DNA of 64,000 nt from Trueperaceae bacterium (GCA_034520945.1 JAXHNB010000002.1:1-64000), one strand, 5' to 3'. Positions 2,176-18,225 are shown, counted from the stretch's first letter. Notes: a model not told the origin generated them from the letters alone. Numbers and translations are program-made.

Positions 2176-3591
2176 TCACGCCAGGCGGTAGGCGTCCTTG
2201 GCTGCGCCGTAGGCCAACCAGTGCGCCATGTCGGGCGCGTCGTCCTCGTCGATCAGTCCGCGTGCCGTCATCCCGGCCAGCCAGTTGGCCGAGGTGCGCC
2301 GCCACACGTCGTGCCGGGTGGGGATGCTGGGGAAGGCGCGGGTGTCGTCGTTGAAGCCGGCCAGATTGTAGATGCCGGCCGTCTCCACCACGCGGTCCAG
2401 GTAGCGGTCCATGCCGAGCACCGAATCGTAGAACCACCACGGCGCGCCCAGGCGCAGCGCCGGGTAGTGGCCCGCCAGCGGCGCCAGCTCGCGAGCGTAG
2501 GTGGACTCGTCCAGGGTGTACACGATCAATCGGAAGGCGGGATCAAAGCCGTGCTCGTTCAAAAGGGCGTGCAGCCCGCGCGTCCAGTCGACCGCGATCG
2601 GAATGTCGGCGCCCTTGTCGGGGCCGAACCGGTCGTAGACGCGCGGGTGATGGTCGCGGAAGCTGCCCGCGTGCACCTGCATCACCAGTCCGTCCTCGCG
2701 CGCCATGCCGGCCATCTCGAACAACATGTGGCCGTGGAAGCGCGCCTGGTCGTCCTCGTCGGCCCGGCCGTCCAGCGCCCGCGTGAACAGCGCCTCCGCC
2801 TCGGACGCGGGGAGGGGCGCGACGAGCGGGTCCTGCACGCCGTGATCACTGGCGGTCGCCCCACGCTCCTGGAAGTAGGCGCGGCGGGACCAGATGGCCT
2901 CGGTGAACGACGTCAGGTCGATGATCTCGCGGCCGGTGCGTTCCTGAAGCAATTCCAACGCCTCCTGCCAGGAGGGGTCGGTCAGCTTCATGAGCGCGTC
3001 CGGGCGGAAGGTGGGCCGGACCGGCAGGCCGTCGGCGCGGATGCGGGCGTGCGCGTCGAGATCGTCGGTGGCGGCGTCGGTGGTGGCAAGCATCTCGATG
3101 TCGAAACGCTCGAACAGCGCGCGCGGCCGGAAGTCGTCCTGCTGCAGCCGCGCCTGCACCTGGTCGTACAGGGCGTCGGCGTTGGCGGCGGTGGGCTTCT
3201 CGCGCACCCCGAACAGTTCGATCAGCTCGGCCTTGAGCCACAGGCCCGTCGGCGTACCGCGGAACAGGTGGAAGTTCTCGCATAAGCGCCGCCACACGGC
3301 GCGGTGATCGCGTTCGGTGGCGCTCCCGTCGCGGGTGGGGACGCCCACGTCCTGCATCGGGACGCCTTGGCTGTACAGCATGCGGAACACGTAGTGATCG
3401 GGTGTGATCAGCAGTTCGGCCGGGTCGCCGAAGCGCGCCTCGGGGTCGGCCAGCAGGTCGGGGGGGACGTGCCCGTGGGGGCACACCAGCGGCAGGCCGC
3501 GGACGTGCGCGTACAGCTCACGGGCGCGGTCGCGGACGGCCGGTTCGGGCGAGAAGCAGCGGTCTTCGTCCAGGGTCCAGGGGGTCGGCAT
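2176..3591 (-). CDS. uxaC: Uronate (glucuronate/galacturonate) isomerase
   Basis: CPHGH metal motif, PDHYVFRMLYSQG, LGAPWWFYDS, GFNDDTRAF..RHD; 471 aa. Confidence 0.95.
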   Translation of the reverse strand: MPTPWTLDEDRCFSPEPAVRDRARELYAHVRGLPLVCPHGHVPPDLLADPEARFGDPAELLITPDHYVFRMLYSQGVPMQDVGVPTRDGSATERDHRAVWRRLCENFHLFRGTPTGLWLKAELIELFGVREKPTAANADALYDQVQARLQQDDFRPRALFERFDIEMLATTDAATDDLDAHARIRADGLPVRPTFRPDALMKLTDPSWQEALELLQERTGREIIDLTSFTEAIWSRRAYFQERGATASDHGVQDPLVAPLPASEAEALFTRALDGRADEDDQARFHGHMLFEMAGMAREDGLVMQVHAGSFRDHHPRVYDRFGPDKGADIPIAVDWTRGLHALLNEHGFDPAFRLIVYTLDESTYARELAPLAGHYPALRLGAPWWFYDSVLGMDRYLDRVVETAGIYNLAGFNDDTRAFPSIPTRHDVWRRTSANWLAGMTARGLIDEDDAPDMAHWLAYGAAKDAYRLA

Positions 3592-3624: not shown

Positions 3625-4641
3625 TCAGGAGGCCGTCGCGTCGGGATCATCGTGCGGCGTCGCGCCGGGACCGTCCGGCGGCGCCGCCAGGCTTAGGTCG
3701 CGGAGGACGCGGTTCACGATCCTCTCGGGCTCGACCTCGACGCCCACGACCAGGACACGCTCGTGCGGTCCGGGCAGTTCGAGCGCGTCGTACTGGCTCT
3801 GCAGCAGACCGGGGTCGAAGAAATGGCCCTCGCGCGCGTCCAGCCGTTCGGCGACCAGGCGCTTCGGGCCGTGCAGCAGCACCACGGCCACCTCGGACCT
3901 CTCGCCGGTGAGGGCGCGGCGGTAGCGGGCCTTGAGCGCGCTGGAGGAGAGCACCACGCCTTCGCCCGCCTCCAGGTGGGCGTCCAGCGCGGCGCGAAGC
4001 GAGTCCAGCCACGGCCGGCGGTCGTCGTCGGTCAACGCTTCGCCGCGCGCCATCTTGGCCTTGTTCTCCGGCGGGTGGTGATCGTCGGCCTCGACGTAGT
4101 GCCAACCCAACCGTGACGCCAGGGTCCGCCCGACGGTGGTCTTGCCGCTGCCGGACACGCCGGCCACCACGATGGCGCGGGGCGGGCCACCTTCGGCCAG
4201 GACTCGGGCGGGCACGTCCTCGAACCACGGCCAGTGCACGCACGAGGGCACGTCGGGGAACAACACCAGGTCGGCCGCGCCCGGCGGGCCCTTGAAGGCG
4301 ACGGTGGTGGTCTCGGCGGCGCCCAGCAGCTCGCGGGCGCGCCTCAGCGTCGCGCCGGTGACCGTGACGTCGTCGACCAGCACGATGCGCTGTCCGCGCA
4401 CGTCGGGGACGTCCCCGACCGGCTGGGGCGCGTCATGGGCGGGCACGTTGGCGTCGTCGCGAAACGCCAGGCGCAACAGGCGGAGCGGCCGCTCCAGCCG
4501 GTACGCGATCAGCGCGCCGGGCACGGTGCCGCCGCGCGCGACGGCCACCACCGCGTCCACCTCGTCGCGTGGGGGCAGGTCGGCGCTGCGGACCCGCTCG
4601 GCGATCCGATCGAACGGCAGGTCGACCGCGTCGTCGCTCAC
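3625..4641 (-). CDS. Fusion of a type I phosphoribosyltransferase domain and a gluconokinase (GntK/IdnK type)
   Basis: N-terminal VVAVARGG and IVLVDDVTVTGATL (PRPP loop). C-terminal GVSGSGKTT P-loop, EADDHHPPENKAKM..LTDDDRRPWL and HFFDPGLLQSQYDALE. One open frame. Confidence 0.88.
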   Translation of the reverse strand: MSDDAVDLPFDRIAERVRSADLPPRDEVDAVVAVARGGTVPGALIAYRLERPLRLLRLAFRDDANVPAHDAPQPVGDVPDVRGQRIVLVDDVTVTGATLRRARELLGAAETTTVAFKGPPGAADLVLFPDVPSCVHWPWFEDVPARVLAEGGPPRAIVVAGVSGSGKTTVGRTLASRLGWHYVEADDHHPPENKAKMARGEALTDDDRRPWLDSLRAALDAHLEAGEGVVLSSSALKARYRRALTGERSEVAVVLLHGPKRLVAERLDAREGHFFDPGLLQSQYDALELPGPHERVLVVGVEVEPERIVNRVLRDLSLAAPPDGPGATPHDDPDATAS

Positions 4642-4672
4642 CGGGCGCCTCCCCGCCCCATGCCGACCCGCC

Positions 4673-5938
4673 TCACGCCTGCCCCCGCACCTTGAACAGG
4701 GTTTCGCCGGCCTTGGGGACGTACAGGATGCCCTCGTCCTCGCGGTCCTGGAACGAGGTCACGTCGATGGCGTCGGGATCCATCCACCCCAGCCCCAACG
4801 CTTCGGTCTCGTCCTTGGGGATGCGGGAGGCCAGCGTCACCTGGGCGCGCGGCTTCTCGACCCCGTCCTCGAAGCGGCCGTCGCCCCGCACGTGCGTCGA
4901 GTGCGCCAACACGCCGAGCGGCACGTGCGAGAACCGGTCCCACTGCTCCAGGAAGTACGGCAGCACGTGGTACCCGATCTCGCGGATCCAGCGGCCGTGC
5001 ACGCGGCTCACCTCGCGCAGGTGCGGGGCGTGAATGATCAGTTCGCCACCCTCCGCCAGCGCCGGCTCCAGCTTGTACATGGCCTTGCCGGCCGTCCACA
5101 GCTCGTCGTACATCGGCGGCGCGACCGACAGGACCCGCTGAAACGGCGCGTCCACCCAGCGGACGTGCCGCTGGGCCGACAGCGCCACCGCCTCGGGCCA
5201 CGCTTCGCGGGGGGCGCCTACGAACGTGCCGGCCAGCTCGCCGCCGTCCACCACCAGCGCGGCCAGGGTGGCCTCCGTGGGCAGCAGTTCGAACGCGGCG
5301 TCGATCATGGCGCGCACCGGCGTGTCCGCCACGCCGATGGTGCGCCTCACGCCGCCGAGGGCGCCCAGCCAGTGCGTGACGTTGATCATGTCCGCTTCGC
5401 TGACGCCGGGGAAGAAGTACTTGGTGCCGCCGGAGAAGCCGACCACCTCGTGCGGAAACGTCGGGCCCAGGATGATCACGTGGTCGTGCTCGACCACCGC
5501 GCGGTTGATGCGCACGTCCACGTCCCCGCCCAGGGTGGGGTGCCAGCGGTCGCCGGCGATCTCCTGAATGCGCGCGCGGGGCAGCGTGCCCAGCGAGGTC
5601 AGCGCGGCGGGATCGTTCCAGGCGTGGTTCTCGAGCCGCACGTGGCGGTAGCGCCCCTGGCGTTCCTCGGCGCTCAGGCCCACCAGGTCGTTCAGGCGGT
5701 CCTCCTCGAGCGGCGGATGCGTGCCGAGCGCCACCATGAACGTCAGTTCGCGGGCGCCGTCCAGGGCGTCCACCATGGTGCGAAACAGCATCGGCAGCGG
5801 CAGCGAGCGCGTGTGATCCGGGATGAGCACCAGCACCCGCTCCCCGTCGTGCGCACCGCCGAAGGCCTGATGAAGGGCCTCCCGGACGCGGTCGTGCGGC
5901 AGGGTCGCGCCCGCGTCCGCGACCGCCCGGGCTCGCAT
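4673..5938 (-). CDS. LarA-family nickel-pincer-dependent hydroxyacid epimerase, probably D-mannonate/D-gluconate 2-epimerase (GntE-like)
   Basis: IPDHTR, ALGTH, FPHEVVGFSGGTKYFFPG, THW and WTAGKAMYK match LarA motifs. ATG 5938 overlaps the upstream TGA. Lies between the uronate reductase and gluconokinase. Confidence 0.85.
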   Translation of the reverse strand: MRARAVADAGATLPHDRVREALHQAFGGAHDGERVLVLIPDHTRSLPLPMLFRTMVDALDGARELTFMVALGTHPPLEEDRLNDLVGLSAEERQGRYRHVRLENHAWNDPAALTSLGTLPRARIQEIAGDRWHPTLGGDVDVRINRAVVEHDHVIILGPTFPHEVVGFSGGTKYFFPGVSEADMINVTHWLGALGGVRRTIGVADTPVRAMIDAAFELLPTEATLAALVVDGGELAGTFVGAPREAWPEAVALSAQRHVRWVDAPFQRVLSVAPPMYDELWTAGKAMYKLEPALAEGGELIIHAPHLREVSRVHGRWIREIGYHVLPYFLEQWDRFSHVPLGVLAHSTHVRGDGRFEDGVEKPRAQVTLASRIPKDETEALGLGWMDPDAIDVTSFQDREDEGILYVPKAGETLFKVRGQA

Positions 5939-6750
5939 CACACCCCGCCGAAGGCGTCGTAGCCGCCGTCGATCGGGATCACCACGCCGGTCACGAAGCG
6001 GCTGGCGTCGGAGGCGAGCCAGGTGATCGTGCCGGCCAGGTCGTCGGGGTCGCCGAAGCGGCCCATCGGGGTGTGGTTCAAGATGGTCTGGCCCCGGTCG
6101 GTGGGGGTGCCGTCGTCGTTCATCAGCATGGCGCGGTTCTGATCGCCGAGGAAGAACCCTGGGGCGATGGCGTTGACGCGGACCTTTTCGCCCCACGTCC
6201 GTGCGGCGTGCACGGCCAGCCACTGCGTCAGGTTGTCGACCGCCGCTTTGGCGGCGGCGTAGCCGATGACGCGGGTGAGCGGCTTGCGGGCGGCCATGGA
6301 GGAGATGTTCACGATGCTGCCGCGCTTTTCGCGGGCCATGCCTTCGCCGAACGCCTGGATGGGCAGTAGCGTCCCGGTCAGGTTGAGGTCCACCACGGCC
6401 CGGAACGCCTCGGGCGTCAGGTCGAACAGGGTCTGGTCGCCGTGCACCAGCGCGTCGGGCCGGTTGCCGCCGGCCGCGTTGACGAGCACGTGGGCGGGCC
6501 CCCAGGCCTCCTCCAGGCGGGTGCGGGCGTCGCGTAGACCGTCCGCGTCCAGCACGTCGGCGGGCAGCGCCATCGCCTCGGCGCCCGCGTCGCCGAGCTC
6601 ACGCGCCACGCGCTCGGCCACCTCTTCGCGGCGGCCCAGCACCGCGACGCGGGCGCCGGCGGCCGCCAGCGCCCGCGACATGGCGCCGCCCAGCACGCCG
6701 GTTCCGCCGGTCACGACCGCGACGCGTCCGCGAAGATCGAAGCCGCTCAC
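5938..6750 (-). CDS. uxuB: SDR-family fructuronate reductase / D-mannonate oxidoreductase
   Basis: VTGGTGVLG, NAAGGN, YAAAK and NAIAPGFF, typical of the SDR-type uronate reductase; uxaC/uxaE context; GTG start 6750. Confidence 0.8.
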   Translation of the reverse strand: MSGFDLRGRVAVVTGGTGVLGGAMSRALAAAGARVAVLGRREEVAERVARELGDAGAEAMALPADVLDADGLRDARTRLEEAWGPAHVLVNAAGGNRPDALVHGDQTLFDLTPEAFRAVVDLNLTGTLLPIQAFGEGMAREKRGSIVNISSMAARKPLTRVIGYAAAKAAVDNLTQWLAVHAARTWGEKVRVNAIAPGFFLGDQNRAMLMNDDGTPTDRGQTILNHTPMGRFGDPDDLAGTITWLASDASRFVTGVVIPIDGGYDAFGGV

Positions 6751-7262
6751 GCGGCGGCCTTCCCCTGGCCGCGCGGGGCGGCCAGCGCGCCGGCGGCGGC
6801 CAGGATCAGCAGGCCGGGCCAGGAGGCGGTGAATGCGAACGCCAACGTCGCGGCGGGTCCCTGGCCTTGCACCAGCGCGCCGGCGACCACCGCGGCGATC
6901 AAGTACGCGGGCGCAGCCACGGCGACGAGCGCGGCCGGCGCCCAGCGGCGCACTGCCAGCACCAGCGACACCACCAGCACCAGCTCGATCACCAAGGCCG
7001 GCAGCATCGGCCCGGCCGGCATGCCGGTCAGTAGGCGGTTGAGCAGCGGCGTCAGCACCGCGATCGACAGCGCCGACACGGCGTCCAGCCGCATGGCGGC
7101 CAGCGTGGCGGCCAGGAAGATGGGCAGCAGGCGCGCGCCCATCGGCGGGCCGGATTCGACGGGGATCAGGTGCACCAGCACCGGCAGGATCAGGCCGGCG
7201 GCCAGCGCCGCGCCGACGGCGGCGACGCGGTAGGTGGTGGAACGGCGGAGGGAGTGGGTCAT
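6747..7262 (-). CDS. Small integral membrane protein, ECF transporter S-component-like
   Basis: 171 aa with about 5-6 hydrophobic helices; pattern AALAAGLILP..H..G..LLP..TPLLN..LTGMP..PG resembles S-components; coupled to both neighbours. Confidence 0.65.
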   Translation of the reverse strand: MTHSLRRSTTYRVAAVGAALAAGLILPVLVHLIPVESGPPMGARLLPIFLAATLAAMRLDAVSALSIAVLTPLLNRLLTGMPAGPMLPALVIELVLVVSLVLAVRRWAPAALVAVAAPAYLIAAVVAGALVQGQGPAATLAFAFTASWPGLLILAAAGALAAPRGQGKAAA

Positions 7263-8785
7263 GACGAACCTCCTTGCGTGGCTGTGGCGGCGTGGGGCAC
7301 GAACGGCTGCAGGTGCCGCACGAAGTGGCGCTCGAGCGCCTCCTCGTGCGCTTCACGGCGGGACTCCAGCAGGGCGATCAGACGCGGCCGGAAGGCGTCG
7401 AGGGCGCTGCCGAAGGTGACGTGCAGGATTTGGCGGGCGTCATCATCGTCCAGCAGACCGGGCAGGTCGGCGTCCGCCAAGCGATCGGGGGCAGGAACGC
7501 GGCTGGGATCGGCGCCGATGAGGTAGCTGGCGCGGTCGGTCTCGAACCGCTCCTGCGCGAGGGCCAGCACGTCGCGGAACAGCTGCGGGTCGTGCTGGGC
7601 CGCGACGCGAAGCGCCTCCAGGTACGAGGTCCCCGCGGTCTTGAGGTGGACCAGCCCGCCGGTCGCCTCGGCGATCAGGGGGTAGACGGAGAACTTGTCG
7701 CTGCCGGAGTGCAGCGACAACTTGTAGGGACCGAACGCGCGCGCGATGCGGGCGTGAGCGTCCAGGGTGCGCGCCAGTTCGTCCAGGTCGCCGCGGAAGT
7801 CGACGCCCTTCTCGAACCGGCCCGTGAAACGCGGCGCCAGCGACACCACGGGCAGCTCGAGCCGCTGCAGCTCCAGCGCCAGGAAGGCGTGCTCCTCTAG
7901 CGTGGTGGGGGTGCCGGTCTCGTCGACCGACACCTCGATCTCGTAGCGGGCCCCGGTCTCACGCAACACCCGGTGCAATTCGGCGGCGTGCGCCAGGGCC
8001 GCGCCGTACTTGGCGGCCGCGCGGGCCAGCGTCTCGTCGTCCAGCCGAAGTGACAGCCCGCCGGCGTCCAGCGCCTGCCCCACGTAGCGCCGGCGCAGTT
8101 CGGCGCGGTGCGTGCCGAGCGCCTCCCACGGCAGGGCGTCCAGCTTGGCGTCCAGCTCCGCGCTGGACGCGGTCGCCGCGGCGTCGTCGACGCGGTCGCC
8201 GGGATCGAACGTGAACATGGCGAAGCCGGCGCTGGCGCAGCGCCGCACGTCCTCCTCGGTCTTCAGGTGGTCGGCGTCCCCGCCCACGCCGGCGGTCCAA
8301 CCCGCCGCGAAGGCGCCCCAGGTGGCGTCGGTGACGACCTCGCGCGGGCTGCGGCCGGTGCGCGTCATCTCGCGGATCGACTGCTGCGCGAAGATCGGCC
8401 GGATCCGCCCCTCCGGGTCGGCCTGCCGCAATGCGCGGGCGTGACCGGGTGTGGCCAGCCCCAGCCGGTCGCCGAAGCCGGCGCTGGTGGCCAGGCCCAG
8501 CGGCTGGGGCGCAAGGTCGGGGAACTGCGTTCGTAGCAGGGCGGCGTTGCCGTGCGAGAGCGGGCCGTGCCCGATCCGGAGCTCCTCGACCGCGTCCTCG
8601 ACCACGCCTTCCAGCCGCTGCCACGCGCGCGCGTCGGGCCGGGCCAGCAGCCCCAGTCGGTCCCGGTCGGGCGCCGCAGGGTCGGGCTCCAACCACGCCA
8701 CGACGTCGTCGCTGAGGCGCAGGGAGGTCGGGTGAAGGTCGGGGACGAGCGCGCGGGCGCGTTCGATCAGGTCGGGATGGCTCAC
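7259..8785 (-). CDS. uxaE: Tagaturonate/fructuronate 3-epimerase
   Basis: GFGDRLGLATPGH, AQQSIREMTRTGR, DADHLK, EVSVDET, FEKGVD, SLHSGSDKFS and HLKTAGTSYLEAL; GTG start 8785. Confidence 0.93.
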   Translation of the reverse strand: MSHPDLIERARALVPDLHPTSLRLSDDVVAWLEPDPAAPDRDRLGLLARPDARAWQRLEGVVEDAVEELRIGHGPLSHGNAALLRTQFPDLAPQPLGLATSAGFGDRLGLATPGHARALRQADPEGRIRPIFAQQSIREMTRTGRSPREVVTDATWGAFAAGWTAGVGGDADHLKTEEDVRRCASAGFAMFTFDPGDRVDDAAATASSAELDAKLDALPWEALGTHRAELRRRYVGQALDAGGLSLRLDDETLARAAAKYGAALAHAAELHRVLRETGARYEIEVSVDETGTPTTLEEHAFLALELQRLELPVVSLAPRFTGRFEKGVDFRGDLDELARTLDAHARIARAFGPYKLSLHSGSDKFSVYPLIAEATGGLVHLKTAGTSYLEALRVAAQHDPQLFRDVLALAQERFETDRASYLIGADPSRVPAPDRLADADLPGLLDDDDARQILHVTFGSALDAFRPRLIALLESRREAHEEALERHFVRHLQPFVPHAATATQGGSS

Positions 8786-9819
8786 GAAGCGGTTCCTTCC
8801 ATGGCGGGAGCGCGGGCGGTCCGGGCCGACGAGGCGCGCACCACCAGTTCGGGCTGCAGGACGATGCCGACGCTGCGCTGCCGTCCCTCCATGCGGGCCA
8901 GCAGCATCCGCATGGCATGCACGCCGAGATCGTACGTCGGCACGTGCAGGGTCGTCAGGGCAGGGGTGAACATGCGGGCGAAGGGGATGTCGTCGTACCC
9001 CACCACGGCCACGTCGTCCGGCAGGACGCGGCCGCGTTCGCTCAGGAGCTGCATGGCGCCGGCGGCGACCAGGTCGTTGAAGCACACCAATCCGTCCAGG
9101 TGGGGCGCGCGGTCGAACAGTTCTGCGGTGGCGCGGCGCCCGCCGACGACGGTTGGCGCGCCGAACACGACGCGCTGGGCCGGCATGTCGAGCTCGGCCG
9201 TGGCCAACTCGTGCGTGATGCCGCGGCGGCGCTCCTGGCCGGCGTGCGACTCGCGCGGACCGGCCAGGACCCCCAACCGCGTGCGGCCGCCGTCCAGGAG
9301 GTGCCGCACGGCCAGTTGCGCACCGTGCTCGTGGTCGACCCGCACCGAGCCGGCCACCCGCGCCGGGGCGTGGCGGTTGACGATCACGGCCGCATCGTGC
9401 CGCGCCAGAAGTGCGTGGAGGCGTCGCTCGGGCAGGCGCGGGCTGCACGCGATCACCCCGTCGATCCGGCGGTCCTCGAACGCCTGCAGCGCCGCCGCTT
9501 CGCGCTCCACGTCCTCGATGACGTTGTTCAACAACAGGGTGTAGCCGGCCTCGAAGGCGACGTCCTCCGCGCCCCGCACGATCTCGGGAAAGTAGGGGTT
9601 GGTGATGTCCGGCACCAGCAGCCCCAGGGTGCGGGAGCGGGCGGCCTTGAGGCCACGCGCGACGATGTTGGGGCGGTAGCCGAGCGACGCGACGGCTTCG
9701 CGGACGCGGCGGCGGGTGGCCTCCCCGACGCCGGGCCGGTCGTTGACCACGCGGGACACGGTCATCACCGACACGCCGGCCTCCGCCGCCACGTGGGCGA
9801 GGGTGACCTTCTCCGGCAC
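8782..9819 (-). CDS. LacI-family transcriptional regulator
   Basis: TLAHVAAEAGVSVMTVSRVVN HTH, YRPN and VVGYDD; GTG 9819 with GGAGG RBS. Confidence 0.95.
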   Translation of the reverse strand: MPEKVTLAHVAAEAGVSVMTVSRVVNDRPGVGEATRRRVREAVASLGYRPNIVARGLKAARSRTLGLLVPDITNPYFPEIVRGAEDVAFEAGYTLLLNNVIEDVEREAAALQAFEDRRIDGVIACSPRLPERRLHALLARHDAAVIVNRHAPARVAGSVRVDHEHGAQLAVRHLLDGGRTRLGVLAGPRESHAGQERRRGITHELATAELDMPAQRVVFGAPTVVGGRRATAELFDRAPHLDGLVCFNDLVAAGAMQLLSERGRVLPDDVAVVGYDDIPFARMFTPALTTLHVPTYDLGVHAMRMLLARMEGRQRSVGIVLQPELVVRASSARTARAPAMEGTAS

Positions 9820-9875
9820 CCGTTGGGCCTCCAAGCTCGGGACCTCCTGAACCGTGCCGCGCGCCTGCGCGGTGG

Positions 9876-9889
9876 GGATAACGATAACG
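9876..9889. promoter_or_regulatory. Putative LacI operator 1 (GGATAACGATAACG)
   Basis: Shares GATAACGNTAACG with the site at 10102; lies downstream of a minus-strand TAGACT -10 box (9903-9908). Confidence 0.6.
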
Positions 9890-10003
9890 GCCTCTGGCAC
9901 CGAGTCTAGCGCCGAACCGGGCGTCGCCGCAAGGCGGACGCTGGGACGCGACCCGCGCGAGCGCGAGGAGCGGCGGCGGTTGACAGGGCCGAGCGTCAGC
10001 GCG

Positions 10004-10033
10004 TTGACGCGTTCGCGACGGGCGTGCTAGGTT
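10004..10033 (+). promoter_or_regulatory. Putative sigma70-type promoter of the TRAP operon
   Basis: TTGACG-18 nt-TAGGTT. Confidence 0.5.
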
Positions 10034-10101
10034 TGATTCAACGATTCTGTCATGCGCCGCGCCGCGTCGGAAGTCGACGCGCCCATGGACGGACCGTAGC
10101 T

Positions 10102-10115
10102 TGATAACGCTAACG
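10102..10115. promoter_or_regulatory. Putative LacI operator 2 (TGATAACGCTAACG)
   Basis: CG-centred imperfect palindrome of LacI type upstream of dctP. Confidence 0.65.
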
Positions 10116-10243
10116 TCACCCAGGGCGAGCGGCCCGGCCCAGCGCGGCCGAAAGGAGGAGGCTCGAGGTCCACGCCGGCACGTTCCGCACGCGCCTCAGG
10201 CCCGTGCGTCAGCCGTACGCCCCCTTTCCTTCGAGGAGGCACC

Positions 10244-11218
10244 ATGCGAAACCTGCTACGCATCACCGCACTCACCGTTCTTACGGCCCTTCTGGCCGGC
10301 GCGGTCGCTCAGGAGATCACCCTGCGCGCCGCCGACAACCAGCCCGAGGACTACCCCACCGTGCAGGGCCTGTACCACATGGCGGAGTACATCGAGTCCG
10401 CCACCGACGGCCGCATCGTGATGGAGGTGTTCCCCAGCGGGCAGCTCGGCGACGAGCGCACCACCATCGAGCAGGTGCAGCTCGGCGTGATCGACGTCGT
10501 CCGCACCAGCACCAGCCCCGTCGGCGAGTTCTATCCGCCCATGGGCGTGTACAGCCTGCCCTACATCTTCCGTGGCGAGAGCCACATGTGGCGGGTCGTC
10601 AACGGGCCCATCGGCCGTGAGCTGCTGGACGGCCTGCGCGAGGCCGACATGGTGGGCCTGGCGTACTACGACTCGGGCAGCCGCAACTTCTACACCACCG
10701 AGACCCCGATCGAGAGCGCCAGCGACCTCGAGGGCATGCGCATCCGCACCCAACAGAGCGAGGTCGTGCTGGACATGATGGAGGCCCTCGGCGCCGAGCC
10801 GGTGCCGATGGCGTTCGAAGAGGTGTACTCCTCGCTGCAGACCGGCGTGATCGACGGGGCCGAGAACAACTTCCCCTCCTACGGCCCGTTCGGCGTCCAG
10901 CACTACGAGGTTGCGCCCTACTTCACGCTCGACGGTCACGCCCGCGTGCCCGAGGTCGTGATGATCTCGCAGAGCACCTGGGACAGCCTCAGCGCTGAAG
11001 ACCAGGCCATCGTGCGCGAGGCTGCCCTCGCCTCGGCCACCGTGCAGGCCTCCCTGTGGGACGACCTCGTCACCGAGAGCCGCGAGGCCGTGATCGAGGA
11101 AGGCAGCGAGATCTTCACCGTCGACACCAGCGAATTCCAGGAGGCGATGGATCCGCTGTACGAAGAGTACGGCGCGGAATTCGGTGAGCTGGTGGACCGC
11201 ATTTTGGCGACCGAGTGA
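10244..11218 (+). CDS. dctP: TRAP transporter solute-binding protein, probably for uronates/sugar acids
   Basis: Signal peptide, FPSGQLG, RIRTQ (carboxylate-binding Arg), EVYSSLQTGVIDGAENN; GAGGAGG RBS. Confidence 0.95.
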   Translation: MRNLLRITALTVLTALLAGAVAQEITLRAADNQPEDYPTVQGLYHMAEYIESATDGRIVMEVFPSGQLGDERTTIEQVQLGVIDVVRTSTSPVGEFYPPMGVYSLPYIFRGESHMWRVVNGPIGRELLDGLREADMVGLAYYDSGSRNFYTTETPIESASDLEGMRIRTQQSEVVLDMMEALGAEPVPMAFEEVYSSLQTGVIDGAENNFPSYGPFGVQHYEVAPYFTLDGHARVPEVVMISQSTWDSLSAEDQAIVREAALASATVQASLWDDLVTESREAVIEEGSEIFTVDTSEFQEAMDPLYEEYGAEFGELVDRILATE

Positions 11219-11241
11219 CGCTCGGGTCGGCCTGAGGCGAC

Positions 11242-13182
11242 ATGGAACAACCGGACCACCACGACGCGGAGGGGCCTCAGGCCCCTTCGCGTTCGTTTTG
11301 GGCGCGCGCCGGCACCGCCTTCGTATGGGCGTTGCGGGTGGTTACCGTCGCCCTGCTGTCGGCGCTCGTCCTGACCATCTCGTGGCAGGTCGCCACGCGC
11401 TACCTTCCCGGCCTTAGCGTCCCGCGCTGGACCGAGGAGGTCAGCCTCATCTTCATGGTGTGGCTCAGCCTGCTGGGCAGCGCCCTGGCCGTGCGCCGCG
11501 CCGAGCACCTCGCCATGGATTTGGTCGCTCGGCAGTTGCCCCCCTCGCTGCAACGCTGGCTGTACCGCCTGGTGTGGCTCGTCGTCGCAGGCTTCTCCCT
11601 CTATTTGATCTGGTACGGGACCGAACTGGCCACCCGCACCATGGGCCAGACCTTCTCGGCCACCAAACTGCCGATCGGCCTGATGTATTACGCCCTGCCC
11701 GCCGGCGGCGCGGTGATGGCGCTGTACGCGATTACCAACATCTTCCGCCGCCCCGAGGTGAACGTCGCCGAGGTGGTCGAGTCGGCTCCGCCGCAAAACC
11801 GCCTGCTCCAAGCGGGCGCCGTCGTCATCGGACTGGCGGTGATCGGCGGCGCGATCGCGATCCTGGGCGTGGACACGGTGCTGGGGCCCATCGGCGTGCT
11901 GTTGGGGACGTTCGCACTGGCGCTGGTGATGGGGATCCCCATCGCGTTCGGCCTCGGCATCGCGGCGCTGGCGGCGATTCTGGTCCTCGGTCCGCCCCCC
12001 CTGATCGTGGCGCAACGGATGGCGTCGGGGGTCAACTCGACCCCGCTGCTGGCGATCCCCTTCTTCATCCTGGCGGGCCAGTTGATGAGCGAGGGCGGCA
12101 TCGCCCAACGCCTGGTCGACTTCGCGCGGGTGATGGTCGGCCCCATCCGCGGCGGCCTGGCGATGGTGAACGTGGTGGCCTCGATGCTGTTCGGCGGGGC
12201 GTCCGGCTCCTCGGTCGGGGACGTCAGCGCCAACGGGTCCATCCTGATCCCCATGATGAAGCGCAAGGGGTACGACACCGACTTCAGCGTGGCGATCACG
12301 GTGACGTCGTCGACGCAGGGGCTGATCATCCCGCCCAGCCACAATGCCGTGATCTACAGCCTGGCGGCGGGCGGCGTCTCGATCGGGGCGCTGTTCCTGG
12401 GCGGCTACCTGCCCGGCATCCTGATCGGCCTGTCGCTGATGGCGGCGTCGTACGCGATTGCGTTGCGGCGCGACTACCCGCGCGAACCTCGCCCACCGGT
12501 CCTGGAGAGCATCAAGATCTCCCTACAGGCCATCCCGGGCTTGTCGGTCGGGTTCATCATCGTCGGTGGGATCGCCTTCGGCTTCTTCACCGCGACCGAG
12601 GCGGCCGCCATCGGGACGGTGGTGGCGTTGCTGGTCGGCGCGTTCGTGCACCGCGAGCTCTCCTTCGCCAAGCTGGGCAAGGCGTTGCTGCAGGCGGTGC
12701 GGACCATCAGCATCGTGGTGTTCCTGATCGCGACCGCCAGCGCCTTCGCCTGGCTGATGGCCTACCTGCGGATCCCCGGCACCATGGCCAGCGGACTGTT
12801 GGGCCTGACCGAGAACCGCATTCTGTTGCTGCTCAGCATCAACCTGATGCTGCTGGTGTTGGGCGCGATCATGGACATGGCGCCGCTGATCCTGATCCTC
12901 ACCCCGGTGCTGCTCCCCATCGTCACCGGCCCTATCATCGGCATGAGCGAAGTGCATTTCGGCATCGTGATGATGATGAACCTCGGCCTGGGCCTTACCA
13001 CCCCGCCGGTCGGCACCGCCCTGTTCGTCGGGTGCGCCATCGGCGGCATCCGCATCGAGGAGGCCAGCCGCGCCATGATCTGGTTGTGGCCCGCCATGCT
13101 GTTCGCCCTGTTGATGGTGACGTTCTTCCCTTGGTTCGTCGAGTTCCTGCCGGGCGTGGTGGCTCGGCTGACGGCGGGGTGA
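11242..13182 (+). CDS. dctM: TRAP transporter fused small+large permease (DctQ-DctM)
   Basis: N-terminal WTEEVS..HLAMD DctQ part, then LLAIPFFILAG, IIPPS, FTATEA and TPPVG DctM motifs; 646 aa. Confidence 0.93.
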   Translation: MEQPDHHDAEGPQAPSRSFWARAGTAFVWALRVVTVALLSALVLTISWQVATRYLPGLSVPRWTEEVSLIFMVWLSLLGSALAVRRAEHLAMDLVARQLPPSLQRWLYRLVWLVVAGFSLYLIWYGTELATRTMGQTFSATKLPIGLMYYALPAGGAVMALYAITNIFRRPEVNVAEVVESAPPQNRLLQAGAVVIGLAVIGGAIAILGVDTVLGPIGVLLGTFALALVMGIPIAFGLGIAALAAILVLGPPPLIVAQRMASGVNSTPLLAIPFFILAGQLMSEGGIAQRLVDFARVMVGPIRGGLAMVNVVASMLFGGASGSSVGDVSANGSILIPMMKRKGYDTDFSVAITVTSSTQGLIIPPSHNAVIYSLAAGGVSIGALFLGGYLPGILIGLSLMAASYAIALRRDYPREPRPPVLESIKISLQAIPGLSVGFIIVGGIAFGFFTATEAAAIGTVVALLVGAFVHRELSFAKLGKALLQAVRTISIVVFLIATASAFAWLMAYLRIPGTMASGLLGLTENRILLLLSINLMLLVLGAIMDMAPLILILTPVLLPIVTGPIIGMSEVHFGIVMMMNLGLGLTTPPVGTALFVGCAIGGIRIEEASRAMIWLWPAMLFALLMVTFFPWFVEFLPGVVARLTAG

Positions 13183-13186
13183 GGCC

Positions 13187-14215
13187 ATGAATCCGGATGT
13201 CGTCGGTCGTGCCGCCGGAGATCCGCCCGAGGTGCGCTTCAGCATCGTCGGTTGCGGCGAGGTGACCGAGGTCAAGTCGGGCCCCGCCTTCCAGCGCGTT
13301 CCGGGAAGTTCGCTTACTGCCGTGATGCGACGCGACGCCGCCAAGGCCGAGGACTACGCCCGCCGGCACGGCGTCCCGCGCTGGACCACCGAGGCGCGCG
13401 AGGTGATCTTCGCGGACGACGTCGACGCCGTCTACGTGGCGACCCCGCCGAACGCGCACGCCCCGTACGTGCACATGGCGGCGGAGGCCGGCAAGCCCGT
13501 CTACGTCGAGAAGCCCATGGGCATGACGCTCCTGGAATGCGAGACCATGAACGACGCCTGCCGCCGCGCCGGCGTGCCGCTCTTCGTGGCGTACTACCGG
13601 CGGGCGCTGCCGCGCTTCGAGCGGGTCCGCGCCTTGATCGCCGAAGGCGCGATCGGCACGCCGCGAACGGTGCGCGTCACCTTGACGCAACCGACGCCCG
13701 AGGAGGCGCGGACCGGCTGGCGCTTCGATCCCCTGGTGGCCGCCGGCGGCCTGTTCGTGGACCTGGGCAGCCACACCTTCGATCTGCTGGACCACTGGCT
13801 CGGACCGGTCACGGACGTGTCGGCGCGCGCCGTCGCTCGGCACCCCGGCGGGCGCGTGGAGGACGAGGTGAGCGCCCGGTTCTCCTTCGAGAACGGCGTG
13901 CACGGCGTGGGCGTGTGGGCGTTCGACGTGCCGGTGGTGCAGGACGAGGTGCAGATCACGGGCACGGCCGGCCGGGTGTCGGTGCCGATGTTCATGGACG
14001 GCCCAGTCGTGCACGTCGGGGCGGACGGCCAGGAACGACGCGAGGAGATCGCGCATCCCGCCCACGTCCAGGAGCCGCTCATCCGCCAGATGGTGGACGA
14101 GCTCCGTGGGGTTGGGGGACCGTGCGTCAGCACCGGGGTCAGCGCGGCGCGGACGCAAGGGGTGCTGGACGCGGTGCTGCACGAGCAGCGGCGGGGGCGG
14201 GTAAGAGGTTCCTAG
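13187..14215 (+). CDS. Gfo/Idh/MocA family oxidoreductase
   Basis: GCGEVTEVKSGPAF, YVEKPM and GGLFVDLGSHTFD. Confidence 0.92.
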   Translation: MNPDVVGRAAGDPPEVRFSIVGCGEVTEVKSGPAFQRVPGSSLTAVMRRDAAKAEDYARRHGVPRWTTEAREVIFADDVDAVYVATPPNAHAPYVHMAAEAGKPVYVEKPMGMTLLECETMNDACRRAGVPLFVAYYRRALPRFERVRALIAEGAIGTPRTVRVTLTQPTPEEARTGWRFDPLVAAGGLFVDLGSHTFDLLDHWLGPVTDVSARAVARHPGGRVEDEVSARFSFENGVHGVGVWAFDVPVVQDEVQITGTAGRVSVPMFMDGPVVHVGADGQERREEIAHPAHVQEPLIRQMVDELRGVGGPCVSTGVSAARTQGVLDAVLHEQRRGRVRGS

Positions 14216-14368
14216 TTGACGCGCAGGTCGCACGTGCGTGGTCCCGTTGCGCCCTCACGGAAGCGTCGTATTCGGCGAATCGCGTTCGGGAGGTACCCAT
14301 GTCCGCCCTAGGCCAGGAAAAGACCCAACAGGCCCTACGTCACATCCCTCGCGGATGCGTTCACCACC

Positions 14369-14623
14369 TTGATGCAGGAGCTCGCGCCGGCTCATGTCCA
14401 CCTGAACTACAGCGAACGGGACGTGCTCTGCGACGGACTTCGCTACGGGCAGTACCTGCACATCGCGCGCTTGCTGGCCGACGCCCGCAGCGTGACCGTG
14501 CTGCGCTCGCAACCCTGGCTGTGGCTTCCGCCGGGCCTCGCCATCTTCGTGACGGTGCTGTGCATCAATTTCCTCGGGGACGGCTTGCGAGACGCGATCA
14601 ACCCGCGCGCGGGCCGCGGCTAG
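14369..14623 (+). pseudogene. Remnant carrying the C-terminal ~50 aa of an OppC/DppC-type peptide ABC permease
   Basis: PWLWLPPGLAIFVTVLCINFLGDGLRDAINPR is a typical OppC C-terminus; the rest of the gene and operon is absent. Confidence 0.75.
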
Positions 14624-14831
14624 CCTGAAGTGGATCGCTTGACTTCGATGGTGGCGCCGCTCTCAGGCGGCCCGCCTCTGCAGTTCCGCCTGTTCCGGCG
14701 TGACGGACTTCGTCAGGTTCGCGACCGTGCCCGAGGCGCAGGACCGCGGTCTGGGCAGCTGGACGACGGCCGAGCGGAGGAACCGCGCTGCGCGCTCCAC
14801 GCGTCGTCCCCGCCGCGCGCTCTATGCTGGG

Positions 14832-15656
14832 ATGGTGCATCACGACCGGGTCCGCCAGCACTACGACCTCGCCAGCCCTCACTACCGGGCGTTGTGGGGC
14901 GTGCACATCCATCACGGCTACTGGGAGTTGGGCGACGAGTCGAAGGAGCTTGCGCAGGAGAAGCTGGTCGAGCTGCTGGCCCGTACGGCCGACGTGCGAT
15001 CGGGGATGCGGCTGCTGGACGTCGGGTGCGGGATCGGCGGCAGCTGCGTGCAGCTGGCGACGCGCTGGGGCGTCCGGGTCTGCGGCATCACCCTTTCGCC
15101 GGTGCAGGCGGAGATGGCGCGCGAGCTGGCCGCCGAGCAACACGCCGAGGTCGAGGTGCGCGTGATGGATGCGCAGGCGATGAGCTTCGCCAAAGAAGGG
15201 GCCCCGCCGTTCGATCGGATCTGGTCGATCGAAGCGCTGTCCCACCTGAGCGACCAGCGCGCCTTCTTTCAAAATGCCGCGGAGCTGCTGGCGCCGGGTG
15301 GTCGCGTGGCGGTGATCGATTGGTTCGAGGCGGAGGGCCTGAGCGACCAGCGGCGCGCACGCTTCGTGGATCCGATCCGAAGCGGCATGCTGACGCCGGG
15401 CATGACCACCATGGAGCGCTACGCTGGATACCTGGAGGAGGCCGGCCTGCGCGTGAGCGTGCGTGAGGACCTGAGCGCGCACGTGCGCCGCACCTGGGAC
15501 CTGACGATCGCGATGCTGGTGGACCGGAACCTGTGGGCGTTGGCGGCGGCGCACGGCCCCGAGTTCGTGGCGTTCCTGCGGGCGTTCCGCGCGATGCGGC
15601 GCGGCTACGCATCGGGCGCACTCCGTTACGGGATGCTGGTCGCCGAGCGGGGCTGA
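14832..15656 (+). CDS. Class I SAM-dependent methyltransferase (tocopherol/sterol C-methyltransferase-like)
   Basis: HYD..LWGVHIHHGYW, LLDVGCGIGG, GITLSPVQ and FDRIWSIEALSH; TATGCT just upstream (start may be GTG 14835). Confidence 0.88.
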   Translation: MVHHDRVRQHYDLASPHYRALWGVHIHHGYWELGDESKELAQEKLVELLARTADVRSGMRLLDVGCGIGGSCVQLATRWGVRVCGITLSPVQAEMARELAAEQHAEVEVRVMDAQAMSFAKEGAPPFDRIWSIEALSHLSDQRAFFQNAAELLAPGGRVAVIDWFEAEGLSDQRRARFVDPIRSGMLTPGMTTMERYAGYLEEAGLRVSVREDLSAHVRRTWDLTIAMLVDRNLWALAAAHGPEFVAFLRAFRAMRRGYASGALRYGMLVAERG

Positions 15657-15709: not shown

Positions 15710-17212
15710 TTAGCTGGGTTCGCAGGCGCTCTCCCCGTCGCGAACCACCGCCTCGACCTCGATCTCGACCTTCAGATCATCGCCGACCAGCCCGGCCAAC
15801 ACCAGCGTGTTGGCGGGGCGGACGTGCCGAAGGCGGTCGCCGTGCGTGCGGGTCACCGCTTCGACGTCCGCGGCGTGGGGCACGAAGACGCGGGTACGCA
15901 CCACGTCGTCCAGCGACGCGCCCAGGCTGCGGAGCGTGCCGGCGATCTTGTCCAGCACGAAGTGCGTCTGCGAGGCGGCGTCTTGGCCGCCGACCAGGCG
16001 CTCGCCGTGCTGGGCGGTGGTGCCGGAGACCTGCACGCGGTCACCGTCGCGCCAAGCGCGGGCGTAGCCGGCGATCCGCTCCCAGCGCGTGCCGGTATCG
16101 ACGATTCGGCGACCATCCGGTCGAACCTCGACCGGGTACGGGGCCGGGAGGCCGTCGAGGTGGTGGCTGAGGTCGCCCGACGCCGTCAGGTAGGGGGGCT
16201 TTCGGTACTCGTCGCCGCAATCGCCGGGAACCGGGGACAGGTCGGAGATCGCCGCCTCCAGTTCGGCGCGGTCTCGCTCACTCAATGCCATATCGAACAC
16301 CCGCAACGTGTCGGCCACGTGCTCGGAGGCGCCGAGCCGCGCGCCGATGATCACGCCGCCCACGCCAGGCGTGTCCAGAATCGCGCGGGTGGCGACGTTC
16401 GCGATCGAAGCGCCGTGCCGGTCGGCCACCCGCCGCGCCGCGCGTAGCACCGCCTGGTACGCGTCCCAGCCGCCGACCTGCGCGATGAAGCGGCGGTACT
16501 TGTTCAGCGACCACGGGGTCGTGTCGTCCCAGGCTGGCTCCGGGCGGTCCAGCCAGCGGTCGGTCAGCAACCCACCGGCCAGCGTGCCGTACGCCAACAC
16601 GTGCATCCCGCGCTCCGCACAGAACTGCGTCATGCCATGGGCGGCGCGCCGGTCCAGCAGCGAGAAACTGACCTGGTTCGACACCACCTCGATGCCGCTC
16701 TCCAAGGCCATCCGAAGGTGGGCGGTGTCGACGTTGGTCAGGCCGAGGTGCGCAATGCGTCCCTCGCCGCGCAGGATCATGAGGTGGTCCAGGGCGTCCA
16801 GCCAGGCGGGATCGTCGTACGCCCAGGCGTGGAACTGCAGCAGCGCAAGGCGGTCGGTTCGGAGACGCTCGCAGGCGCGGTCGACCGCGGCCCGTACCTG
16901 CTCGCCCGTCACCGGGCCCGGTTCGGGAACCCACTTGGTGAGCGCCTCGATCGGAGCGGCCTCGCCCCGCGTCGCGCGGTAGTGGCCGCAGATCAACTCG
17001 GCCGATCCGTAGTGGTCCGCCATGTCGAACGTGGTGAGGCCGGCCGCCACGTACCGCTCCATGGCCGTGGCGGCCTGTTCCGGATCGACCGTGTCGCCGT
17101 GACGCTCCATGTCGGCGATCTGCCACAAGCCGGTCAGGATCCGCGACACCTCGAGGCCGGGCGCCAGGGCGATGCGAGGGACGGACGAGGGAGCACCGGT
17201 GTCGGCAGGCAT
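15710..17212 (-). CDS. Aldo/keto reductase fused to a C-terminal RidA/YjgF-family domain
   Basis: [29 protein letters not shown]; then [39 protein letters not shown] 7 nt before ATG 17212. Confidence 0.88.
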
Positions 17213-17367
17213 GTGCGGGAGTCTACCGCGCCCCGTTTTCCTGGAGGCCGCCTGCCCCTTGCGTGGCGCGCATCGCGGGCGCAAGATGGGCTCAGGATCG
17301 GCGCTCGGCGCTGGGCGCACCGGCATGGGGGCACCGCCGGCGCACGCCGGTCCGGAAAGGACGCCCC

Positions 17368-18225
17368 ATGATCGTCAAGGCACCGTTCGGAACCACCGGC
17401 CACCAAAGCAGCCGCGCCATCTTCGGCGCCGCCGCGCTGAGCGACGTGCGGCAGGCGGACGCCGACCGCGCCCTCGAGACGGCGCTGGACCACGGCGTGA
17501 ACCACATCGATACGGCCGCGTCGTACGGTGACTCGGAACTGCGCTTGGGGCCCTGGATGGCGCGCTACCGCGCCGATCTGTTCCTGGCCACCAAGACCGG
17601 CGCCCGGGACCGTGCGGGCGCGCGGGACGACCTGCACCGCTCGTTGCACCGCCTCCGCACCGACCACGTCGACCTGCTGCAACTTCACAACCTGGTGGAC
17701 CCCGAGGAGTGGGAACGGGCGCTGGGTCCCGGTGGCGCGCTGGAGGCGGCCGTCGAGGCGCGCCAGGAGGGCCTGGTGCGGTTCATCGGCGTCACCGGCC
17801 ACGGCGTGGAGGTCGCCGCGCGGCACCGCCAGAGCCTGGAACGCTTCGCGTTCGACGCGGTGTTGCTGCCGTACAGCTACGTGATGATGCAGAACCCGCG
17901 CTACGCGGCCGACTTCGAGGCGTTGGCCGACGTGTGCGAGGCGCGCGGCGTGGCGATGCAGACCATCAAGGCGATCACGCGCCGCCCCTGGGGCCCGCGC
18001 GCGCAGGACCGCGCCACCTGGTACCAGCCGCTGGAGGAGCCGGACGCCATCCGCTCGGCGGTGCACTGGGTGCTGGGCCGCCCGGGGGTGTTCCTGAACA
18101 CCGTCGGCGACGTCAACGTGCTGCCGCGGGCGCTGGAGGCCGCCGCCAGCTTCGAGGCGCGGCCCAGCGAGGAGGAGATGCAACGCCTGGTGGCGGACAA
18201 GGAGATGGAGCCCCTCTTCACCTGA
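17368..18225 (+). CDS. Aldo/keto reductase
   Basis: [19 protein letters not shown] and FIGVTGH; AAGGA RBS. Confidence 0.92.

Follow-up and report, generated by a model that had tools for sequence, protein, structure and literature searches.

A putative cofactor-supply module of an S-component-like membrane protein and a type I phosphoribosyltransferase beside nickel-pincer enzymes in Trueperaceae lacking larBCE

Introduction

How does a bacterium that encodes nickel-pincer enzymes without LarB, LarE, or LarC come by their cofactor? The question is raised by a stretch of 64,000 nucleotides from a Trueperaceae bacterium (GCA_034520945.1, JAXHNB010000002.1:1-64000), the whole of which is called the window below; the genome it comes from is 3.47 Mb and 97.4% complete. 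The feature under study, at positions 3625..7262, belongs to an operon in which the gene for a LarA homologue of the GntE type has the gene of a small membrane protein, here called MEM, two genes upstream and a type I phosphoribosyltransferase (PRT) domain directly downstream. A preliminary description had drawn attention to this tightly packed arrangement, with MEM as an S-component-like protein, and the layout is as it was described, all on the minus strand; what is new is that the PRT domain is the N-terminal half of a fusion with a gluconokinase. The features on which the argument turns are as follows.

6747..7262, minus strand: MEM, a 171-amino acid membrane protein with a predicted S-component fold
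4673..5941, minus strand: LarA homologue, GntE-type (D-mannonate/D-gluconate 2-epimerase), with Lar_N
3625..4641, minus strand: PRT-GntK fusion, one 338-amino acid protein (PF00156 and TIGR01313)
4219..4641, minus strand: type I PRT domain, residues ~1-140, the N-terminal part of the fusion (PF00156, 52 bits)
3625..4173, minus strand: GntK/IdnK-type gluconokinase domain, residues 157-310, the C-terminal part of the fusion (TIGR01313)
17263..18222, plus strand: NphT orthologue, nickel-pincer-dependent aldo-keto reductase (AKR) and second cofactor user in the window (9YEB, E 2.5e-76)

LarB/LarE/LarC is the sole route to the cofactor described in the available parts of PMC11770544, PMC11796402, and PMC13524815; here and below, these papers and PMC7583248 are cited for those parts. 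The genome surveys in the first three stress carriers of the pathway that lack LarA, and the reverse case is not treated in the parts concerned. Uptake or salvage of the cofactor goes unmentioned in the available text of all four, and no report of a PRT-, transporter-, or salvage-based nickel-pincer route was found in a literature search whose coverage mostly excludes subscription journals.

Across genomes, PRT and MEM are linked with one another and with nickel-pincer enzymes of three sorts: both co-occur and co-localise with GntE-type LarA, with a second LarA type (LarA2), and with NphT, which bears out a connection that had been read from this one operon. Judging from genome comparison, we consider the chances about even that MEM and PRT form a cofactor-supply module for nickel-pincer enzymes in bacteria without LarB/LarE/LarC.

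Results

Nickel-pincer enzymes in a genome without larBCE

The closest solved relative of the window's LarA homologue is 4NAR (E 7.9e-59), which is Thermotoga maritima GntE2, a D-gluconate/D-mannonate 2-epimerase whose dependence on the cofactor was shown experimentally (PMC7583248). The motifs DHTR, GTH, PHE, GGTK, THW, and WTAGK are all identical in the two proteins, and they include the residues given cofactor-binding and catalytic roles in GntE2 (PMC7583248). PF09861 (Lar_N) matches at 78.9 bits; the best-scoring LarA model, NF052594 (hexonate epimerase), gives 161.1 bits, which is below its cut-off of 500. We take the protein to be a diverged branch of the GntE group, and it is expected to need the nickel-pincer nucleotide.

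The NphT orthologue points the same way. NphT (9YEB) is a cofactor-dependent AKR that binds the cofactor via His144 and Lys200 (PMC13524815), and both positions are kept in the window, in the motifs GVTGHG and QTIKAI. Divergent from this gene, at 15713-17326 on the minus strand, lies an open reading frame (ORF) of 538 amino acids with a full-length AKR domain and an L-PSP/RidA domain. The genome has a further LarA-like gene on contig 8, carrying an in-frame TAG.

The absence of larB, larC, and larE had been reported for the window, and profile searches extend it to the whole genome: two LarC models (TIGR00299 and PF01969) found nothing, NF033503 found no LarB at E<=0.001, and the LarE model TIGR00268 gave 22-28-bit matches only, against a cut-off of 150, in an assembly at whose 97.4% completeness a gene in the missing 3% is possible. 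T. maritima, used as a control genome, has LarB, LarC, and LarE, unlike the genome of the window. The LarB model also matched in all 14 control genomes (presumably via PurE) and not here, and purE may be missing or very diverged.

PRT and MEM across the Trueperaceae

We surveyed 128 Trueperaceae genomes, calling those with LarA or NphT users.

LarA: 96/128 genomes
NphT orthologue: 60/128 genomes
LarA or NphT (users): 107/128 genomes
LarC, LarB, and LarE over cut-off: 7/128 genomes, the same genomes for all three, with the genes clustered
PRT clade: 51/128 genomes, 49 of them users
MEM: 29/128 genomes, 28 of them with PRT

The larBCE genes are therefore missing from 100/107 user genomes, and MEM occurs in none of the seven that have larBCE. 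The two PRT-bearing non-users are 81-86% complete assemblies, and PRT occurs without MEM in 23 of its 51 genomes.

By coordinates and tblastn on the loci fetched, PRT comes immediately after GntE-type LarA in 19 genomes, and in a twentieth it follows at 2.1 kb; its neighbour is MEM in 15, and in three genomes of a single genus, one of which is also among the 20 with LarA nearby, it directly follows NphT. Altogether, PRT is near GntE-type LarA, MEM, or NphT in 37/51 genomes, and the other 14 show no such neighbour or a contig edge. Seen from the 29 MEM genomes, PRT is adjacent in 15, in the same operon in 11, 31 kb away in one, on another contig in one, and missing from one.

Alternation of PRT with larBCE

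PRT, with or without MEM, holds the position of larBCE in related LarA2 and NphT operons. The LarA2 operon comprises, in order, LarA2, a 3-hydroxyisobutyrate-dehydrogenase-like protein, an ATP-binding cassette (ABC) permease, an ATPase, an epimerase, a LacI regulator, and an NMT1-type binding protein. Genome G237 carries larC-larB-larE between the epimerase and LacI, with an isochorismatase-family gene at the end; the G246 operon has no lar genes and ends in MEM-PRT; and in G298, G231, and G308, again without lar genes, PRT-MEM-substrate-binding protein-LacI is divergent from LarA2. NphT is followed by larE-larB-larC in four genomes (G293, G247, G185, and G174) and by PRT in three (G058, G207, and G149). 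LarA is entirely absent from two of these three, G058 and G207, where the AKR aligns with NphT at E 1.5e-71 and retains the His and Lys.

The uronate operon gives a third instance within one genus, where the larBCE-less G086 has UxaE-MEM-SDR-LarA-PRT-GntK-UxaC (SDR, short-chain dehydrogenase/reductase), and in the larBCE-positive G293 MEM is missing and PRT is broken. The G293 remnant (L083, G293:C13, 7466-7924) is a PRT frame with an in-frame TAG and with WPW changed to WPR; the downstream GntK is intact, in another frame.

Two side observations concern LarA2 operons. The slot where G246 has MEM-PRT is occupied in G237 (L073, G237:C17, 17334-18143) by the gene of the isochorismatase/nicotinamidase family. 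A second MEM copy (MEM2) accompanies a LarA2-type operon at about 6848-15508 of locus L043 (G000:C8:36000-54000), a set made up of a substrate-binding protein, permease, ATPase, LarA2, 3-hydroxyisobutyrate-dehydrogenase-like protein, epimerase, LacI, and MEM2. The locus seems degraded: its LarA2 is divided between frames and interrupted by an in-frame TAG, LacI and the binding protein are in pieces, and no PRT follows MEM2.

The membrane protein

MEM of the window matches no Pfam or NCBIfam model, and its assignment comes from a predicted structure. The AlphaFold2 model (pLDDT 80.5) has eight helical segments, and in a wide VIA-align search against 48,161 chains the best 15 matches were all S-components of energy-coupling factor (ECF) transporters, among them RibU, BioY, PanT, FolT, BtuM, NikM, ThiT, and CbiM. 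These matches had Z of 8.6-11.8 and root-mean-square deviations of 3.6-5.0 over 145-162 residues; the tool advises Z of ~13 for helical bundles, and since the MEM values are lower, the case rests on the uniform identity of the hits. Foldseek against the PDB was weak with the same model, giving a best E of 0.095 and nothing at E<=0.001. The resemblance announced earlier is real at the level of the predicted fold; MEM has an ECF S-component fold and apparently stands outside every named S-component family.

A word-based search returned 33 close relatives only, none of them named, and a profile search over 1.84 billion representatives returned 491 MEM-family clusters at E<=1e-3, nearly all of 160-190 amino acids. 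Among 139 relatives, six weakly match PF12822 (best E 6e-6) and one matches TIGR04518; a profile built from these 139 and run against PDB sequences found RibU alone, at E 0.92. Ten distant relatives looked up by cluster yielded neither names nor taxa. His31 and Gly42 are invariant in MEM; Pro27, Asn75, Gly80, and Pro82 are nearly so; and the closer relatives keep a conserved Glu.

MEM had also been called solitary, and this holds well beyond the window. EcfT/CbiQ (PF02361) was detected in 10/128 Trueperaceae genomes and in two (G000 and G227) of the 29 that bear MEM; the genome of the window has one such gene, away from the operon, at C6:228893-229501. The other 27 MEM genomes have no EcfT/CbiQ, and MEM, as a putative transporter, would therefore have to work without an ECF module, as a solitary carrier. 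A prediction of a complex between MEM and the PRT domain scored 0.00, which weighs neither for nor against binding.

Relatives of MEM were also seen in two other settings. In a more distant branch (L054, 4402-8997; L056, 2-2087; L052, 2-1358), the MEM relative comes behind a class I methyltransferase; L054 has NikR and a TonB-dependent receptor further upstream, and DUF4198 lies on the opposite strand in L054 and L056, a nickel-uptake-like setting with no PRT in any of the three loci. Another branch (L058, 698-6280; L059; L063/L064; L065; L066, 5085-10489) ends a conserved DUF6599-DUF362-polyferredoxin-AKR operon. One AKR of these operons has a twin-arginine (Tat) signal, and that of L066 has NphT as its best solved match (E 1.1e-13), with the His and Lys kept. 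A 328-amino acid relative, P0189, proved on inspection not to be a PRT-MEM fusion.

The phosphoribosyltransferase

That a type I PRT lies downstream of LarA was a correct reading: PF00156 matches above its gathering score, at 52 bits against a cut-off of 26.3. The closest solved relatives are xanthine-guanine PRT (XGPRT) structures from E. coli (E about 1e-6), and no NCBIfam equivalog is reached, the best, NF006613, scoring 37.1 bits where its cut-off is 138. The stand-alone form in L050 is 146 amino acids long. Elsewhere, the genome encodes Hpt, Xpt, Apt, PyrE, PyrR, Upp, and Prs, each scoring above its cut-off. By these matches the domain is an extra, unnamed type I PRT, apparently not one of the usual purine or pyrimidine enzymes.

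Eleven members from diverse loci share the motifs NYRD..N.P, LLVDDVSVSG.TL, and CV.WPW. The loop for phosphoribosyl pyrophosphate (PRPP), VDDV(S/T)V(S/T)G.T, is kept in 11/11 aligned members; in the pyrophosphate loop, the residue ahead of GG is not conserved. Aligned with E. coli XGPRT, DDLVDTG becomes DDVTVTG, i.e., there is no Asp two residues past the acidic pair. That Asp is the general base in 6-oxopurine PRTs. The conserved loop is in keeping with a catalytic PRT.

Other Deinococcota, metagenomes, and fusions

Outside the Trueperaceae, we sampled 198 genomes from four other Deinococcota families. LarA is present in 11/198, and strong PRT matches fall in the same 11; three weak matches (E about 1e-11) come from genomes without LarA. 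All 10 loci fetched have the order LarA-PRT-GntK, and the eleventh pair is adjacent by coordinates. LarC was detected in none of the 10 genomes tested (G096 not among them), and MEM in 0/198. For PRT and MEM in further phyla, the Atlas resource points to clusters of Verrucomicrobiota and Bacteroidota.

Metagenome contigs carry MEM relatives of 31-46% identity, with PRT directly after MEM in 6/25 loci and other contexts in the rest. The G+C content of these six is 44 to 67%; that of the window is 72-75%. L049 combines a TonB receptor, MEM, and PRT with a convergent canonical LarA, and L046 has a GntE remnant, MEM, and PRT-GntK. In the latter (8677-9975), a 432-amino acid ORF, most of it non-LarA, replaces all but the last ~36 codons of the GntE-type LarA upstream of MEM-PRT-GntK; our guess is an insertion-element transposase.

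An NCBI protein of 483 amino acids from Shivajiella indica, P0283, joins a PRT domain, a twin-arginine-like stretch, and an NphT-like AKR, for which NphT is the best solved match (E 8.2e-22) and in which the His and Lys are kept. Regardless of whether P0283 stems from one fused gene or from two that annotation has run together, it is a further PRT-NphT-type adjacency, in another phylum. P0281, in which ~205 N-terminal residues of a GntE-type LarA lead into the final two thirds of PRT, was read as a deletion or assembly chimera and not as a functional fusion.

The operon and its carbon pathway

The operon runs, on the minus strand, LacI, UxaE, MEM, SDR, GntE-type LarA, PRT-GntK fusion, UxaC. 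Its remaining genes and the adjoining transporter are these:

8782..9804, minus strand: LacI-family regulator of the operon (Pfam LacI and Peripla_BP_1/3)
7259..8701 (start approximate), minus strand: UxaE, tagaturonate/fructuronate epimerase (PF16257, E 3e-134)
5938..6726, minus strand: SDR-type D-mannonate oxidoreductase (fructuronate reductase) (NF006132, 365.6 bits, cut-off 281)
2176..3591, minus strand: UxaC, glucuronate isomerase (PF02614, E 2.1e-72)
10244..13182, plus strand, divergent: tripartite ATP-independent periplasmic (TRAP) transporter for sugar acid, with DctP at 10244-11218 (PF03480) and a fused DctQM at 11242-13182 (PF04290 and PF06808)

The UxaE stop overlaps the MEM start at 7259-7262, as the SDR stop does the LarA start at 5938-5941, and the remaining gaps within the operon are 20-33 nucleotides. 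Two GFO/IDH/MocA oxidoreductases come after UxaC. The LacI gene upstream of UxaE is conserved in related loci, where the TRAP transporter adjoins the operon too.

The predicted enzymes make up an ordinary hexuronate route: UxaC and UxaE would yield fructuronate, the SDR mannonate, the GntE-type LarA gluconate, and GntK 6-phosphogluconate, the kinase domain passing TIGR01313 at 147.2 bits against a cut-off of 113.75. MEM and PRT have no role in this chemistry. The earlier points that sugar-acid uptake belongs to the TRAP system and that the carbon route has no PRPP-dependent step both stand, and a role of the extra genes in modifying UxaE, which had been offered as an alternative, was rejected because PRT and MEM recur without UxaE. 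MEM as the hexuronate carrier was likewise rejected, given the TRAP system and the MEM-PRT pairs outside uronate operons. No Rfam family reached its gathering score in 14 loci (147,632 bases) surrounding MEM-PRT pairs or operons, and hence there was no riboswitch clue.

A comparable route is that of T. maritima, in which UxaC, UxaE, an SDR, and a GntE-type LarA (GntE2) lead to gluconate and its phosphorylation (PMC7583248). The sugar kinase of that operon group is of another family (PMC7583248, Table S1), whereas in the window a GntK/IdnK-type kinase is fused to PRT and MEM is inserted in the operon. As far as the available part of the same table goes, LarA groups 18-22 come without PRT or an S-component, and an orotate PRT accompanies archaeal group 12 only.

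Discussion

The suggestion that the two extra genes may supply the cofactor finds support on comparative-genomic grounds, among them the alternation with larBCE in conserved operons. PRT tracks GntE, LarA2, and NphT, whose sole common feature is the nickel-pincer cofactor, so supply by a carrier together with PRT is the most economical explanation. In the mechanism that we propose, MEM, a solitary carrier of the S-component type, would admit a scarce pyridine-type compound from which the nickel-pincer nucleotide is made or into which it breaks down; the small type I PRT would use PRPP to trap the imported base as a mononucleotide; and GntE, NphT, and the second LarA type would then be charged with this. 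We rate this specific base-salvage chemistry lower than cofactor supply in general, and the identity of the substrate and the supply of sulfur and nickel are, in such a module, matters of conjecture.

Each half of the module has known counterparts. Like the solitary S-components BtuM and BioY, with which the fold match is at Z 10.3 (8ovv) and 11.4 (4dve), MEM has ~170 amino acids, and no ECF module is encoded with it; BtuM and BioY function on their own. Unlike them, MEM is apparently in no named family and has a constant PRT partner, which the known ones lack. The coupling of a carrier to a PRPP-dependent trapping enzyme is that of established base salvage (niacin with nicotinate PRT; xanthine permease with Xpt), from which MEM-PRT differs in its minimal type I PRT of 135-150 amino acids outside the named equivalogs and in having nickel-pincer enzymes as partners, rather than enzymes of nicotinamide adenine dinucleotide or purine metabolism. 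PRT and MEM occur in the same places as LarB/LarE/LarC, next to LarA2 and NphT, and would likewise serve GntE, without any sequence relation. The neighbourhood NphT-larE-larB-larC, seen here in four Trueperaceae genomes, is that reported for the NphT family (PMC13524815); in contrast, the window's genome and 53 other NphT-bearing Trueperaceae genomes lack larBCE, with PRT in its place in three. MEM-PRT would thus be of a known kind, transporter-plus-PRT salvage, applied to a cofactor for which LarBCE is the one route described in the available parts of the papers cited.

Several points weigh against MEM and PRT as suppliers. By itself, PRT cannot stand in for carboxylation, the two insertions of sulfur, and that of nickel, and the operons cover none of these steps; since one PRT cannot do all that LarB, LarE, and LarC do, the input would have to be a far more advanced precursor, or further enzymes take part. 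To our knowledge, moreover, the known pyridine PRTs are type II. Neither PRT nor MEM is present in 52/100 larBCE-less users, in which the enzymes must hence acquire the cofactor, or be active, independently of the module; G190, G218, and G147, each a single contig, have a plain UxaE-SDR-LarA-UxaC operon with no PRT or MEM. Conversely, G275 has larBCE plus an apparently intact PRT, and in eight genomes of genus g11 and in G202, G268, and G275, PRT has no adjoining nickel-pincer enzyme. Related genomes are not independent, so the counts overstate the evidence and Fisher values computed from them are given no weight, and the NphT-PRT adjacency within the Trueperaceae comes from one genus only. 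In the Deinococcota sample beyond the family, the search did not cover every base of some genomes, and genes could be missed. Finally, GntK is fused to or adjoins PRT in many lineages, which also fits a role linked to the pathway.

That last point bears on one of four alternatives, in which the PRT domain serves regulation or sensing: it binds PRPP or a nucleotide, as PyrR/PurR-type folds do, and tunes the flux through GntK and GntE into the pentose-phosphate pathway. PRT is indeed fused to gluconokinase or next to it, both in Trueperaceae and in each of the 10 loci fetched from other families, G268 has PRT-GntK-6PGD with LarA elsewhere, and PyrR models match PRT weakly. However, PRT also stands alone beside MEM, a LarA2 operon, or NphT, where GntK is absent; a tight pairing with a transporter-like protein ill suits a kinase regulator; and the residues of the PRPP loop are fully conserved. 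We think this improbable, and rank it third. The same conservation speaks against a last alternative, in which a non-catalytic PRT-like protein binds the finished or nearly finished cofactor, a ribonucleoside 5'-monophosphate, and carries it to apo-enzymes or inserts it into them: little or no variation is seen in the acidic pair and the S/T-G-x-T loop, as would be expected of a catalyst. PRT folds do bind nucleoside monophosphates as products, the residue ahead of GG in the pyrophosphate loop is not conserved, and PRT is associated with three structurally unrelated cofactor users, all of which would suit a carrier; we nevertheless give it the smallest chance of the four.

The foremost of the alternatives, although still unlikely in our judgement, separates the two proteins: MEM would act like NikM/CbiM and import nickel, free or chelated, and PRT would build the pyridinium nucleotide from an internally made base, an unrecognised de novo route and not salvage. 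NikM (4m5c, Z 10.2) and CbiM (5x3x, Z 8.7) are among the fold matches of MEM, its invariant His and the Glu conserved among closer relatives would be in keeping with nickel, and the 23/51 PRT genomes without MEM would be accounted for. The NikR - TonB receptor - methyltransferase - MEM loci with DUF4198 (L054, L056, and L052) fit as well, but they belong to a different, PRT-less branch of MEM; in many loci, MEM and PRT are translationally coupled, a better fit to a common substrate, and nothing that recurs in the operons is a candidate for inserting sulfur or nickel. Placed second, and also with little probability, is the view that MEM and PRT are a general salvage pair for a purine, niacin, or another heterocycle or vitamin, found beside LarA or NphT by operon hitch-hiking. 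The closest solved relatives of PRT are xanthine-guanine PRTs, MEM-PRT pairs are isolated amid unrelated genes in L086, L087, and L088, and PRT is present in three LarA-less genomes; in two of those three, however, it directly follows the NphT orthologue. Such a pair would be added to a genome that already has Hpt, Xpt, Apt, and Upp; it would leave unexplained that LarA and PRT coincide exactly, and always adjacently, in 11/198 genomes outside the family; and the larBCE alternation in three operon types is hard to put down to chance.

If MEM and PRT are not the suppliers, the cofactor supply of these orphan enzymes is still a question. Users without larBCE dominate the whole family (100/107), and two unnamed gene families track the enzymes and swap places with larBCE. 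Cofactor supply by MEM and PRT could be part of something wider, which we put forward tentatively and regard as rather less than probable: the cofactor, or its nickel-bearing pyridine core, might be a shared 'vitamin' of microbial communities, for which most Trueperaceae and some other sampled Deinococcota would be auxotrophs. Entry would be through a solitary S-component of a new kind, which in some diderms would work behind a TonB receptor, and the nucleotide would be rebuilt by a dedicated type I PRT, giving a LarBCE-independent route for LarA, NphT, and perhaps DUF362-type enzymes. Should MEM and PRT indeed supply the cofactor, enzymology would gain a simpler means of loading LarA and NphT enzymes, galacturonate catabolism in organisms without larBCE would be explained, and the nickel-pincer cofactor would join the list of traded micronutrients.

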